Counted from the first letter of the stretch, positions 3,155 to 61,532 are shown. The stretch: 64,000 nt of DNA from a virus (IMGVR_UViG_2821123053_000004:4819-68818), one strand, 5' to 3'. Translations and numbers: made by a program. Notes: generated by a model from the letters alone, not told the origin.

Positions 3155-3457
3155 ATGACGCAAATCACCGGCGAAACGCTGGCGGATATGCACGCTCGTC
3201 GCCTGAGAGGCGAGAGCTGCGCTGATATCGCCAGATCCTACGGCATCAAAGAGATGACGGTCTACCAACGTCTGCGCCGCGAGTTCGGCCTGGATATCTA
3301 CAAGCAGCGCCCCGTCGCTGCAAACGACAACGTGCCTGGCCGCGTCCGCAAGATGGCCGCGCACAACGGCGGTTGCTCGACGTTGTCGGGAATGATGCCG
3401 GTGACTTTGGCCCGCGTGCCGACCGTCGACGGTCTTGATCTGCAGGTGGCGGCATGA
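3155..3457 (+). CDS. Cro-like HTH protein
   Basis: GESCADIARSYGIKEMTVYQRL HTH; contains AANDN; ends VAA. Confidence 0.75.
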   Translation: MTQITGETLADMHARRLRGESCADIARSYGIKEMTVYQRLRREFGLDIYKQRPVAANDNVPGRVRKMAAHNGGCSTLSGMMPVTLARVPTVDGLDLQVAA

Positions 3458-3738
3458 GTTGCCCTGATTGCGGAGGTCTCGATGTCGGCGACGTCGTCGA
3501 GCACAAGATGAACACCAATGTCGTCGGCATCGTCATCGGCTTCATGGGCAGCCTTGTCTGCCTGCGTGTCTCGCCAACACTGGAAATCCTGTCATTCCAC
3601 GAATGGGAGCTTCGTCTGATCGCAGACGATACAGGCCCGCCGACAAAGGCGGAAGAGCCGATACCTGACAACGTTGTCGTTGTCGATTTCACCAAGAAAC
3701 AGGATTTACGCGGCGCGAAGCCGGCAGGGAGGGCGTGA
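3454..3738 (+). CDS. Hypothetical protein
   Basis: ATGA overlap with upstream gene; CPDC and KOW-like VGDVV motif. Confidence 0.7.
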   Translation: MSCPDCGGLDVGDVVEHKMNTNVVGIVIGFMGSLVCLRVSPTLEILSFHEWELRLIADDTGPPTKAEEPIPDNVVVVDFTKKQDLRGAKPAGRA

Positions 3739-4574
3739 TTATGAGTAAGTTCAAGGTAGGCGATAAGGTCCGGCTGACCAAGGACAATGGCGGCGGCGAA
3801 TTCGGATCGAAGGGCGATGAGGGCGTTGTCAGATCTGGACCGGATACCAACGGTGATTATTCGATGACCTTTACCACAGGTACGGAAGCTGGCGACTATT
3901 GGTTCGTTGCTCCCGACGGCATCGAGCTCGCTACCCTCACCATCGAAGCCGGCAAGTTCTACAAGACGCGCGACGGCCGGAAGGTCGGGCCGATGACGAA
4001 AAGCGATGGCCGCTGGTACGTCCGCGGTGCGCTCGGTACGTGGAATGACGACGGTACCGCCTCCAACCATCACAAGCCAACCGCAACCGAATTCGGAGAC
4101 CTCATCGCCGAATGGGTCGCCGAACCAGCAGTGCACTCCGCAACGCCGGCGGCCGTGGCCAACGACAACGCGGCGGCGAAGCCGAAGTTCAAGGTGGGTG
4201 ATCGGGTGCGCATCGTGAGAGCACGACTGTCCCACAAGAAGCCGCATATCGGCGACGAATTCGTCATCCAGCGCGAAACGTACAAAGTAGATGGCGAGAA
4301 AACGTGGGGTGGCGAAGGCGCGCACGGCTGCGTGTGGCTGGAAAGCGAACTCGAGCTCGCGCCCTCCACACTCGCCATCGTCGCCCTGATCGAAAACGGC
4401 CAGCCGAAGCCGGCCACAAAGCCGAAGATCCACGCCGACCAGGCAAGCGCCACCACGGAAGCCGAGCGACTTGCGCTCCAGTTCCCCGGCCAGCAGTTCG
4501 GCGTCTTTGTTCTTGCGGATAGCAAGATCGCGGACGTGGTCAACGTCCCGACGGCCGTCCTCCGCGCAGCCTAA
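3735..4574 (+). CDS. Modular hypothetical protein with two KFKVGD (KOW/SH3-like) repeats
   Basis: KFKVGDKVRL and KFKVGDRVRI; VANDN linker; ends RAA. Confidence 0.8.
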   Translation: MIMSKFKVGDKVRLTKDNGGGEFGSKGDEGVVRSGPDTNGDYSMTFTTGTEAGDYWFVAPDGIELATLTIEAGKFYKTRDGRKVGPMTKSDGRWYVRGALGTWNDDGTASNHHKPTATEFGDLIAEWVAEPAVHSATPAAVANDNAAAKPKFKVGDRVRIVRARLSHKKPHIGDEFVIQRETYKVDGEKTWGGEGAHGCVWLESELELAPSTLAIVALIENGQPKPATKPKIHADQASATTEAERLALQFPGQQFGVFVLADSKIADVVNVPTAVLRAA

Positions 4575-4608
4575 CCACCAACCCACCACCATCACCACAG
4601 CAACAGCC

Positions 4609-4627
4609 GTGCGCCTCACCAGCGCAC
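4609..4627 (+). repeat. Hairpin with CTCACCA loop (also 6807-6833, 13391-13407, 55962-55976)
   Basis: Different stems, identical 7-nt loop. Confidence 0.7.
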
Positions 4628-4642
4628 GGCGAGAGGAGAACT

Positions 4643-4951
4643 ATGTCCACTGCATTTCAGAAGGTGCTCGAAAAGGAGCACGCGAACGACAGCAAGCTTG
4701 GTATGCCGTCGACCAGCTACGAGCACCACATCCGCCGCCTGACGCTGATGGAAAAGCTAGCCGGCGGCAAAGGCTGGCGAATTCCCGCCAAGGACGTCCG
4801 CAAGTTCGCCGACGGCACCACTCGCGGCCAGCGCAAGCGCGCCCTGCGCGCCGTCTTCGATGCTAAGGTCAGCGAGATGCGGCCTTACCTCTTCATGCAC
4901 AGTGCGGCACGTCGGCGTGCCTTGTCTGCAGAGGTGAGGGAGGCGGCATGA
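4643..4951 (+). CDS. Hypothetical protein
   Basis: Strong SD GAGAGGAG; 102 aa. Confidence 0.75.
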   Translation: MSTAFQKVLEKEHANDSKLGMPSTSYEHHIRRLTLMEKLAGGKGWRIPAKDVRKFADGTTRGQRKRALRAVFDAKVSEMRPYLFMHSAARRRALSAEVREAA

Positions 4952-59372: not shown

Positions 59373-59950
59373 TGGAACTCCACCAGCTGATGGAAATGGG
59401 CGAGGTGGTAACCACCACTTTCGGCCCACTCGACAAGTACGTAGCCGCGAATGACAACGTGCCGGCCTCCATCCGAGGCCTGACGGGCAGCGGCAAGCCT
59501 TACCTCTACAGCGCCAAGGAACTGGCTGCGCGTGACCGGGAAACCGAGCCGCTGCACACGCTGGATGATCTGGCAAAGCTGCAAGGCTTCATCTATCTCG
59601 GCTCTCCGTATGCAAAGTATGATGCCGGCATGGATGAGGCGGCCCGCGTCGTCACCGAGTGCGCCGGCAGGCTCATGGCGCGTGGTATGCGGATCTACTG
59701 CCCGATTGCCCACGGCCATGCCGTCACCCGCTACCAGGATCTGCCGCGAACTTGGGACTTCTGGAAAGATCAGGACCAGCCTCTGATTGACGCCGCGTCA
59801 TCGCTCATCGTTCTAGAGATGCGGGGTTGGTGGGATTCGGTCGGGCTCAAGTACGAGTTCGAAAGCTTTCTCAAGGCAGGCAAGCCGATTGTCTATATCG
59901 AGCCGCACGAGCTCGGCGTCGAAGAGCCGAAGCTGGGGAGGGTGGCATGA
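59369..59950 (+). CDS. DUF1937-like (nucleoside deoxyribosyltransferase-fold) protein
   Basis: IYLGSPY..YCPIAHGH..SVGLKYE. Confidence 0.8.
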   Translation: MMELHQLMEMGEVVTTTFGPLDKYVAANDNVPASIRGLTGSGKPYLYSAKELAARDRETEPLHTLDDLAKLQGFIYLGSPYAKYDAGMDEAARVVTECAGRLMARGMRIYCPIAHGHAVTRYQDLPRTWDFWKDQDQPLIDAASSLIVLEMRGWWDSVGLKYEFESFLKAGKPIVYIEPHELGVEEPKLGRVA

Positions 59951-60303
59951 CCAAGAAGAAGCTGACGTGGAGCGAAGAGCTTGTCGGCCGCAAGCTTCCC
60001 GCCGATGCCAAGTATATCGACACCATCATGGCTGGCTTCGTTCGGGACGACGGCACGTTCTGCGGCCGCATGGAGCCGATCGACAGGTGGCTTCGAGCGC
60101 CTTGGAAGAGCTGCCGACGCGCTGGATGGGTCAAGGCCAGCATCCTCAGCTTCGGCAAGAACGCGACCATCTTCTTCTTGACAGAGAGCGGCGAGGCTGA
60201 GGCTCTGGCGGCGAAGGGTCGAGTGAAGTCGGCTAGGGAGGCTCGCGAGCAGTGGAGCCTCGATTGGACCAAGGCGTGGCAGTCGAAGCAGGAGGCAGCA
60301 TGA
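59947..60303 (+). CDS. Hypothetical protein
   Basis: ATGA coupling. Confidence 0.65.
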   Translation: MTKKKLTWSEELVGRKLPADAKYIDTIMAGFVRDDGTFCGRMEPIDRWLRAPWKSCRRAGWVKASILSFGKNATIFFLTESGEAEALAAKGRVKSAREAREQWSLDWTKAWQSKQEAA

Positions 60304-60557
60304 TCAATCCTTTCGGCAACATCATCATGGGCGTCCAGGTTATCGAAGATCCGAATATGAAGGAGGTCGTCGGCGAGGATTGGTCAAAGGTCCGCTCGCC
60401 GGCGCGAGCCCGACGGCGCAGGCGCAAGCACAGGCAGAACATCCTGCCTCTCTACGCGCCGATGAAGGAGTTCTACCACATCGGCAACCAAATCATCTGC
60501 CATCCTGCAATGGCGGCGCAGCTGAGGGCAGCGATCCCTGAGAGGAGGGTAGCATGA
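60300..60557 (+). CDS. Hypothetical protein
   Basis: ATGA coupling. Confidence 0.65.
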   Translation: MINPFGNIIMGVQVIEDPNMKEVVGEDWSKVRSPARARRRRRKHRQNILPLYAPMKEFYHIGNQIICHPAMAAQLRAAIPERRVA

Positions 60558-60760
60558 CCCTCACCATGGAAAAGCTCATGGAGATGGGCGAAAACGCCAG
60601 CGTCCAGATCGCCGCCGGCCCGGCCTACCTTCATACCGGTCATCGTCTTGAGCCACGCCTATGGGATGACCTGCGGCAGGAAATGCAGCGCCGGTTGCGC
60701 CGAGCAACAGGCGAACCGCATGCCATCGTCACGTTCTCATTCGGATCGGAGGCCACATGA
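60554..60760 (+). CDS. Hypothetical protein
   Basis: ATGA coupling. Confidence 0.6.
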   Translation: MTLTMEKLMEMGENASVQIAAGPAYLHTGHRLEPRLWDDLRQEMQRRLRRATGEPHAIVTFSFGSEAT

Positions 60761-61038
60761 ACACCATCAAACCCGGCGACGACATCGTCTGCATCGACGA
60801 CGGCATCTATGCTGAGCAGTACCTCGGGATCACCGAGGGCCAGGTCTATAAGGCCCGATGGGTCGGCCCGGTCACCAGCTACATGAACGGCGACTACATC
60901 GGCGTCAGGCTGGAAGGCATCAACCGGGGCGTCTGCCCTGAGTTCGGCGACGAGGATCCGCCGTTCAACGTGCGCCGGTTCCGGCCGGTGGTGAAGCCGG
61001 AAGTGAAGGCCGGCAAGAAAGTGGAGGAGGCACTATGA
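60757..61038 (+). CDS. Hypothetical KOW-like protein
   Basis: IKPGDDIVCID..FRP. Confidence 0.65.
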   Translation: MNTIKPGDDIVCIDDGIYAEQYLGITEGQVYKARWVGPVTSYMNGDYIGVRLEGINRGVCPEFGDEDPPFNVRRFRPVVKPEVKAGKKVEEAL

Positions 61039-61532
61039 CCATAGAATCACAAGACGATGGCTGCATTGCCGAGGTACCGTTCGAACTGCGCGGGCTCGGC
61101 GCGGCAATAGGCAAGGTGCCAGCCAACGACAATAGCTTCTTTGACCGTGCAATGTCGGCGCCCGGAAGCTTGCCGTCCAGTAATCCGAAGCGTGCCTTTG
61201 GGGTCCGCAAGCCGTCCGCTCAATTCATCCCGCCAGTGGCCATCGTTGAGGAAAGTGCCGTCATGGCTCTCGGTGCGGCGAAATACGGGCCCTTCAATTG
61301 GCAGGACGACCCGGTGGACGCCACCACCTACTACAGCGCGGCGATTCGCCACTTGCTGCAGTGGTTCTCAGGCGAGGACCGGGACACTGAAAGCGGCGCC
61401 TCTCATCTGGCTCACGTCAGGGCGTGTATGGGCATCTTGCTCGACGCGCAGGCGGCAGGCACGCTGATCGACGACAGGCCGAACTGCGCGTCAGCCGGTG
61501 ATGCGATCGAGAGACTGAAGAAGGCAGGATAA
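61035..61532 (+). CDS. dATP/dGTP diphosphohydrolase-domain protein (DUF5664-like)
   Basis: GAAKYGPFNW..AAIRHL..D.ESG.SHLAH. Confidence 0.85.
   Translation: MTIESQDDGCIAEVPFELRGLGAAIGKVPANDNSFFDRAMSAPGSLPSSNPKRAFGVRKPSAQFIPPVAIVEESAVMALGAAKYGPFNWQDDPVDATTYYSAAIRHLLQWFSGEDRDTESGASHLAHVRACMGILLDAQAAGTLIDDRPNCASAGDAIERLKKAG

Follow-up and report, generated by a model that had tools for sequence, protein, structure and literature searches.

We analyzed a 64,000-nucleotide stretch of viral DNA (the window), which spans positions 4819-68818 in an IMG/VR provirus record of 68.8 kb (58.7% G+C), and found that the tetrapeptide ANDN, with which the SsrA tags in genomes with related prophages begin, recurs in 11 unrelated proteins and is joined by an excess of free C-terminal Ala-Ala ends, the end shared by those tags. 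Based on this likeness, we consider it somewhat probable that the phage encodes mimics of the SsrA tag that are read by the SspB adaptor and ClpXP protease of its host. The isolates closest to the window were Sinorhizobium phage NV1.1.1 and Rhizobium phage 16-3, and the provirus belongs to the 16-3 group as a temperate prophage of rhizobia.

ANDN was detected exactly 13 times by six-frame scan of the window, with every copy on the + strand and in frame within 11 genes of the 74 proteins called by a simple and crude program based on G+C content at third codon positions (GC3). This number agreed with that of the initial annotation, as did the sites, while the start positions given there were off by 0 to 6 bases because they had been counted from the preceding Ala run. 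Only 0.14 copies were expected from composition (2000 per-protein shuffles gave a mean of 0.14 and a maximum of 3), and ANDN was the most frequent tetrapeptide of the window proteome. The residue at position -1 was Ala in 9 of the 13 copies. Codons within the motif tracked genome-wide usage (GCC/GCG/GCA/GCT for Ala, AAC/AAT for Asn and GAC/GAT for Asp), and no copy of the DNA word GCNAAYGAYAAY was present out of frame in the window, which can be stated because the six-frame scan took in every frame. The synonymous variation and peptide-level selection that had been proposed were thus borne out.

All copies in the window were located outside of the Pfam-matched stretch of the protein, either in linkers between domains or in N-terminal extensions and C-terminal tails. 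ANDN thus has the properties of a short linear motif, being positioned outside of folded domains, kept while its flanks vary and carried by 11 unrelated proteins; the motif is polar and did not match the β-clamp-binding type (QL[SD]LF, hydrophobic pentapeptide). Two carriers ended in complete tag-like tails (AAANDNEPVRRAA-stop and VANDNTPTDGTTTAAA-stop), four others (3155-3457, 3735-4574, 17500-19809 and 22091-23158) combined an internal ANDN with a terminal Ala-Ala, and the sole near match among the virion proteins of the window was AANNN in the tape measure protein. In all of these respects the initial annotation was accurate, as it was for the gene labels: helix-turn-helix (HTH), DUF669, superfamily 2 (SF2) helicase, Prim-Pol/AAA_25, phrog_704, pyrophosphatase, DUF1937 and dGTP_diPhyd_N (previously called DUF5664). 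No transfer-messenger RNA (tmRNA) was found in the window or in the whole record, and the motifs sit inside ordinary open reading frames (ORFs); ANDN is therefore considered a mimic and not a tmRNA product.

The motif was similarly abundant in the relatives of the provirus. Phages 16-3 and NV1.1.1 encoded approximately 18 and 20 copies, respectively, some of which were on the minus strand in minus-strand genes, and six related prophage pieces each had 6 to 10 copies per 21 kb. Helicases 84-95% identical to that of the window were found in prophages of Neorhizobium sp. JUb45, Rhizobium esperanzae, Rhizobium sp. NFR07 and one metagenome-assembled genome, with remoter related prophages in Pelagibacterium and Ochrobactrum. 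Among 97 distinct instances from the family, the -1 residue was Ala in 50 and Pro in 33, the +1 residue was variable and the +2 residue was often Pro. In the Cro-like orthologues AANDN was kept and the flanks varied, the first ANDN of the DUF669 protein was kept in 9/9 relatives examined, and N-D-N was invariant in the helicase tail of seven orthologues while the rest of this tail was variable (alignment A1). Orthologues of the DNA repair exonuclease (57122-58474) ended in ANDNVPASERRVA in phage 16-3 and ANDNVPVEQKRVA in NV1.1.1. By contrast, the Cas4-domain exonuclease of the window (8214-9155, +) had lost the ANDN tail that is present in its 16-3 and NV1.1.1 orthologues and kept an EEAA end, and the primase ANDN was in a linker in the window and in the C-terminal tail in Neorhizobium (L007). 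Because the position of the motif differs in this manner between orthologues, ANDN appears to have been gained and lost repeatedly. These findings bear on whether ANDN is functionless, that is, whether disordered tails that happen to bear it were spread by recombination and persist by descent. Phage genomes are mosaic and several instances are orthologous copies, as such a history would predict; however, the flanks of separate instances were unrelated in sequence, the motif was retained while flanks diverged, and its position shifted between orthologues, such that we find a lack of function very improbable.

In E. coli and Caulobacter, the SspB adaptor binds the head of the ssrA tag; the native tags are AANDENYALAA and AANDNFAEEFAVAA, respectively, the latter being read with SspB-alpha (PDB 2QAS/2QAZ). 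Host tags were read from five genomes with related prophages. All five encoded two-piece tmRNAs with tags (ANDNYAEARLAA, ANDNNAKEYALAA, ANDNNAKGYALAA and ANDNKAQGYALAA) that began with ANDN, as the initial annotation would predict, and the head becomes AANDN once the tmRNA-borne Ala is included. Only (A)ANDN-x-A and the AA end were common to the host tags, and the phage motif was likewise variable at +1. The sspB gene was directly beside ssrA (the tmRNA gene) in 5/5 of these Rhizobiales genomes (G001-G005), and the host SspB proteins were at least 87% similar to the Agrobacterium protein (2NYS) and homologous to Caulobacter SspB-alpha (2QAS/2QAZ). No SspB was encoded in the phage record. The proposed enrichment over the host was also found: the host genomes (3-7 Mb each) had 23 to 43 copies of GCNAAYGAYAAY, of which about half were in the related prophage and one was in ssrA, so that the density in the rest of the host genome was approximately 3 per Mb compared to approximately 200 per Mb in the window, a difference of approximately 60-fold.

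We examined the spacing of head and end by scanning IMG/VR for ANDN followed by a gap of 6 to 36 bases and Ala-Ala(GCA)-TGA, by which 80 loci were listed; between scans of this type only ratios are comparable. Among the matches listed, 73 had head and end in the same frame and 10 did not, compared to a chance ratio of approximately 1:2. Before spacing was counted, 12 loci that were true tmRNA genes (detected by ARAGORN) were removed, together with others that had stops just upstream. The 46 unique ORF tails among the matches listed had 5 (5 tails), 6 (12 tails), 7 (13 tails) or 8 (7 tails) residues between ANDN and AA in 37 cases, with each other distance represented by at most two tails. The mode was 6 to 7 when counted by tail and 7 when counted by protein family, and native host tags have 6 or 7. 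The two complete tails of the window had 5 (57122-58474) and 9 (9155-9826) residues at this position. When the same scan was performed with other heads, again among the matches listed, ANDE was found 30 times in frame and 50 times out of frame, as expected by chance, and ANDD was found 53 times in frame and 27 times out of frame with no spacing peak.

The scans also yielded matches of other kinds. Among the ANDE matches listed (L252-L331), 14 out-of-frame matches piled up at a gap of 22 bases, perhaps from a repeated element. Entire tmRNA genes (example of an encoded tag, ANDNDSFADIRLAA) were present on low-G+C IMG/VR contigs (L146, L153, L162, L164, L168, L176, L178, L183, L187, L189, L194 and L201), which are either provirus borders at ssrA or contigs with phage-borne tmRNAs.

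An AA end was present on 17 of the 74 window proteins, including 6 of the 11 ANDN carriers compared to 11 of the 63 other proteins (Fisher p = 0.014). The remaining 5 carriers were the DUF669 protein, helicase, pyrophosphatase, DUF1937 protein (which ends in VA) and dGTP diphosphohydrolase. By use of the same gene caller, AA termini were found on 16-43% of genes in 16-3-like genomes, whereas the range was 0-10% for nine control phages with a comparable G+C content, four of which infect alphaproteobacteria. Of the family's ANDN tails that lie no more than 13 residues from the stop, 62% ended in AA and 88% ended in x-A, and ANDN tails that had no coupled downstream gene ended in AA in 55% of cases compared to 12% for other uncoupled genes. 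The residues ahead of the terminal Ala-Ala in the window gave RAA, AAA, VAA, EAA and KAA ends, unlike the LAA type in which Leu or another hydrophobic residue stands at this position. Mere overlap of AA ends with the ribosome site or start of the next gene (GGAGGCGGCATGA) was rejected as a sufficient cause, since at identical RTGA stop/start junctions AA was found in 50/107 cases in 16-3-like phages compared to 4/95 in the nine controls. Also against overlap as a sufficient cause were the penultimate Ala at RTGA junctions, which used all four Ala codons, and several AA ends that had no downstream gene. The Ala-Ala codons of protein 9155-9826 (9818-9823) were outside of any downstream ribosome site. 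Thus, Ala-Ala termini are a lineage-specific trait and not a by-product of gene overlap.

The same data address whether GCNAAYGAYAAY is instead a nucleic-acid signal, such as a site for protein binding, a translation enhancer or a recombination boundary, with the AA ends serving as a ribosome-site spacer. Many AA ends do overlap GGAGG-N4-ATGA junctions, and the C-terminal and N-terminal copies of the motif are near gene boundaries. By contrast, every copy is in the coding frame and strand, including those in opposite-strand genes of relatives, codon choice at four synonymous positions follows that of the genome as a whole, the IMG/VR matches listed are predominantly in frame, and the AA ends are neither reproduced at the junctions of other phages nor limited to genes that have a downstream neighbor. 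A DNA- or RNA-level motif was rejected based on this frame, strand and codon evidence, and we judge a signal of this type to be extremely improbable.

The trait extended beyond the 16-3 group. Tag-like tails were found on three different portal families, and relatives and other lineages had complete tags on portal proteins, such that the restriction of tags to early proteins in the initial annotation proved too narrow. Contigs L133, L190 and L191, the proteins of which were at most 27-51% identical to those of the 16-3 group, had approximately 20 ANDN per 10,000 residues compared to 8 in the window and approximately 0.08 by chance. A 4 kb Exo/RecT early-operon fragment (L079) with no detectable homologue of the 16-3 group encoded two complete tails (ANDNSALVAAA-stop and ANDNFPFEEAA-stop) and had an AA end on 4 of its 8 genes. 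A host search for the unrelated contigs gave one weak match for L079 and mainly a tRNA match for L142. The presence of the trait in distant and apparently unrelated contigs (L079, L133, L190) fits a host-encoded reader. No ANDN was found in three Pseudomonas phages and Burkholderia phage phi1026b, nor was there enrichment of ANDN, ANDD or ANDE in these four phages.

Taken together, the sequence patterns indicate that the head, the free AA end and the native spacing are all under peptide-level selection in several phage lineages. The phage motif and the native SsrA tag are alike in the (A)ANDN head, free Ala-Ala end and head-to-end spacing, and in the adaptor gene beside ssrA in host genomes. 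They differ in that the native tag is added co-translationally to stalled chains by tmRNA while the phage version is encoded in normal genes, is often split (the head being internal or N-terminal and the AA far from it) or reduced to the head, and does not copy the middle of the tag. The combination of head, AA end and native spacing would not be easily explained by a reader other than the tag machinery. The mimicry that was originally proposed held for its sequence-level predictions, namely the tag head, the enrichment over the host, AA ends as a lineage trait, the 6-7 spacing and sspB in the hosts and not in the phage; from these we infer SspB binding, ClpXP degradation and their biological purpose.

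We favor an encoded SsrA mimic because this combination matches the host tag, because the E. coli tag is modular, because RseA(1-108) provides a split example and because there is a precedent in mycobacteriophages. In the E. coli tag, the first seven residues bind SspB (PMC9963277; PMC8512704), an isolated head is bound tightly by SspB and not degraded (PMC8512704), and the head with a weak end gives SspB-dependent degradation (PMC8512704; PMC9963277). E. coli RseA(1-108) is a ClpXP substrate that is delivered by SspB and has a C-terminal VAA (PMC8138137, Table 1). It is similar to the carriers of internal ANDN and AA in being a non-tmRNA substrate with the adaptor segment apart from the terminal Ala-Ala, and differs in that its SspB-binding segment is unrelated to the ssrA head and that it is a single host protein. 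Mycobacteriophage BPs and its relatives encode ssrA-like C-terminal tags on repressor and integrase, which are used in integration-dependent immunity (PMC4557955). Like the phage of the window, BPs is a temperate phage that encodes a C-terminus like the tmRNA tag, which in BPs destabilizes its own regulatory proteins (PMC4557955). However, in BPs this is limited to one or two proteins with a C-terminal degron only, has no SspB head and includes removal of the tag by integration. The phage of the window has the trait on a dozen or more unrelated proteins, includes a putative adaptor-binding head and leaves repressor-like proteins untagged (865-1590 and 2435-3052 had neither ANDN nor an AA end, unlike the repressor/integrase of the BPs type). 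Phage proteins with their own ClpXP degrons include lambda O (N-terminal motif) and MuA (C-terminal RRKKAI) (PMC8138137, Table 1); these would be similar to the carriers in being phage replication or transposition proteins with a lifetime or remodelling set by host ClpX, and differ in having individual degrons that are not ssrA-like and act without SspB.

In viruses of eukaryotes, short host-like peptides evolve convergently in the disordered regions of many proteins and engage a host machine. The ANDN trait resembles this motif mimicry, the proteome-wide use of one motif in a bacteriophage was not found described in our literature searches, and no publication on an encoded ANDN/AA trait was found in these searches.

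By the mechanism that we favor, the head module [A/P]-A-N-D-N in disordered tails, linkers and N-terminal extensions would copy the start of the alphaproteobacterial tag, and the tail module, a free C-terminal Ala-Ala, would copy the portion of the tag that enters the ClpX pore. Where head and end are close together (9155-9826 and 57122-58474), a full tag would be formed, leading to SspB delivery to ClpXP and degradation. Where an internal head is combined with an AA end (the Cro-like protein, 3735-4574, primase and 22091-23158), tethering by SspB would promote the use of a terminal degron of lesser strength, as is the case for E. coli RseA(1-108). The head-only proteins (DUF669, helicase, pyrophosphatase, dGTP diphosphohydrolase and the DUF1937 protein ending in VA) would bind SspB and be inefficient substrates. 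The net outcome would be that a host protease determines how long a large part of the non-virion proteins of a temperate phage persist, with early and regulatory protein turnover, suppression of noise in lysogens and removal of unassembled portal as possible purposes. More tentatively, the host ribosome-rescue degron may have been turned into a lifetime code used throughout the phage group, in which the full tag would specify fast SspB-ClpXP turnover, an internal head with AA would specify adaptor-dependent turnover and the head alone would specify SspB occupancy. Such a code, which would have arisen convergently in several lineages, could time or silence the early programme and clear leaky lytic proteins in lysogens as well as unassembled portal.

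SspB may also be bound for a purpose other than carrier turnover, with abundant head-only decoys saturating SspB or queuing at ClpXP and altering the degradation of host substrates, tmRNA-tagged or other, during infection. The 5 of 11 carriers that have no AA end, two of which have tandem heads, are consistent with decoys, as is the tight binding of SspB by the E. coli head without degradation (PMC8512704). However, complete and natively spaced tags and the strong AA enrichment point to engagement of ClpX and not adaptor binding alone, and a decoy would need one abundant protein rather than a dozen. We consider decoys quite unlikely, although sequence data do not discriminate between decoys and turnover.

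Several observations weigh against a mimic read by SspB and ClpXP. The tags were read from genomes with related prophages rather than from the host of this provirus. One third of the family copies have Pro instead of Ala ahead of ANDN, Leu is rare just before AA in family tails, and portal and capsid proteins, which need to persist, end in AA here or bear full tags in relatives. Orthologous ANDN instances are not independent, so the statistics are inflated and the p-values optimistic. Only 0-1 copies of ANDN were found in Sphingomonas phage Kharn, Brucella phage Fi, Rhizobium phage RHEph26, Sinorhizobium phage PBC5 and Rhodobacter phage RcapMu, although PBC5 is temperate and infects the same host species as 16-3. 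Because these five other alphaproteobacterial phages are without the motif, ANDN is not a general adaptation to alphaproteobacterial hosts. This lineage restriction would be expected if ANDN were recognized as a short linear motif by some other reader (a hub of the host or a protein encoded by phages of the lineage), which for example recruits carriers to a replication/recombination factory or chaperone, with the SsrA likeness being coincidental. The Pro residues at -1 and +2, which are foreign to native tags, and the presence of other docking motifs on the same tails (DDIPF, like the SSB tip, on the helicase and Q..DLFG, like a clamp-binding motif, on methylases of a phage with its own DnaN) are in keeping with a different reader. 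We nevertheless find a different reader unlikely, as it leaves unexplained the AA-end excess of ANDN tails over other genes, the native 6-7 spacing peak and the co-occurrence of AA termini as a lineage trait. In addition, the carriers range too widely in function to form one complex, as they include Cro-like and excisionase-like proteins, a sigma factor, nucleotide hydrolases and portal, and the same trait is found on contigs in which no homologue of the 16-3 group could be detected.

If SspB and ClpXP do read these motifs, this would be the first bacteriophage in which a large part of the proteome mimics, through a short linear motif, a quality-control tag of the host, the known cases being one or two regulators. 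It would also provide a simple protein-lifetime rule in a classical genetic system (phage 16-3 and Sinorhizobium meliloti), offer natural variants of the adaptor-binding head and the head-to-end spacing for work on SspB-alpha, and reveal that mobile elements can co-opt the trans-translation machinery. Should SspB not bind, some other reader would have to account for a motif that is conserved and extremely enriched. The individual copies and ends are presented in Table 1.

Table 1. ANDN copies and Ala-Ala ends of carrier proteins in the window.
Feature	Position	Strand	Protein and context
ANDN (PVAANDNVPG)	3320..3331	+	Linker after HTH, Cro-like protein 3155-3457
QVAA end (Ala-Ala codons)	3449-3454	+	Cro-like protein 3155-3457
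ANDN (AAVANDNAAA)	4158..4169	+	Middle of unknown protein 3735-4574 (phrog_4317)
LRAA end	4566-4571	+	Protein 3735-4574; no downstream gene overlapping
ANDN, first in DUF669 C-terminal tail	6699..6710	+	Protein 6213-6800; domain residues 14-124, motif residue 163
ANDN, second in DUF669 tail	6723..6734	+	Residue 171 of 195; protein ends RRPWGNK, not AA
Complete tag-like C-terminus VANDNTPTDGTTTAAA-stop	9779..9826	+	Unknown protein 9155-9826 (phrog_984); 11 residues after ANDN
ANDN, first in SF2 helicase C-terminal tail	12071..12082	+	Helicase 10361-12154
ANDN, second in SF2 helicase tail	12095..12106	+	Alignment A1
ANDN (KAAANDNES)	18505..18516	+	Primase 17500-19809, linker between Prim-Pol (25-196) and AAA_25 (382-572)
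EEAA end	19801-19806	+	Primase 17500-19809
ANDN (PIAANDNKPK)	22289..22300	+	Residue 67 of unknown protein 22091-23158
KKAA end	23150-23155	+	Protein 22091-23158; followed by TAG, no overlapping gene
Complete tag-like C-terminus AAANDNEPVRRAA-stop	58439..58474	+	DNA repair exonuclease 57122-58474 (phrog_704); 7 residues after ANDN
Ala-Ala codons	58466-58471	+	Exonuclease 57122-58474
ANDN (TIAANDNPVP)	58980..58991	+	N-terminal extension (residue 22), pyrophosphatase 58917-59372
ANDN (YVAANDNVPA)	59447..59458	+	N-terminal extension (residue 27), DUF1937 protein 59369-59950 (domain 75-176), ends GRVA
ANDN (KVPANDNSFF)	61122..61133	+	N-terminal extension (residue 30), dGTP_diPhyd_N protein 61035-61532 (domain 49-148)

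Other short motifs were observed on some of these tails. The tip of the DUF669 protein, RRPWG(N/S)K (6770-6800, +), was conserved after the ANDN copies in most relatives and may be an additional docking motif. The helicase end DWDDIPF (12107-12154, +) resembled the acidic C-terminal tip of the bacterial single-stranded DNA-binding protein (SSB), and D-x-I-P-F was retained in most relatives immediately past the ANDN copies. The N6_N4 methylase of the window ended in QSGDLFRVAA. The methylase tails of relatives read ANDN...Q(A/S)(D/S)LFG-x-AA, which is like a clamp-binding motif (L009 at ~15070, L011 at ~14325 and L005 at ~2619), and the phage encodes its own DnaN clamp; the window loci concerned are 16694-16729 (+) and 6858-7910 (+).

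To the left of the window (record bases 1-4818), three further ANDN were found, all in minus-strand genes: MSPANDNRP at the N-terminus of an excisionase-like protein, an internal VANDNQEDE and a complete tail RPANDNRRPQRRAA-stop. At the other side, the final gene of the window (63227-64000, -) encoded an ABC-transporter ATPase with a GC3 of 0.82 and, because of this identity and very high GC3, it is host flank DNA, which places the right prophage end at approximately 61.6-63.2 kb. A low-G+C island between the primase and the genes at 21.4 kb encoded a 443-residue protein with a SIR2_2 domain (19855-21189, -; Pfam E = 6e-25), which is probably a prophage-borne defence gene.

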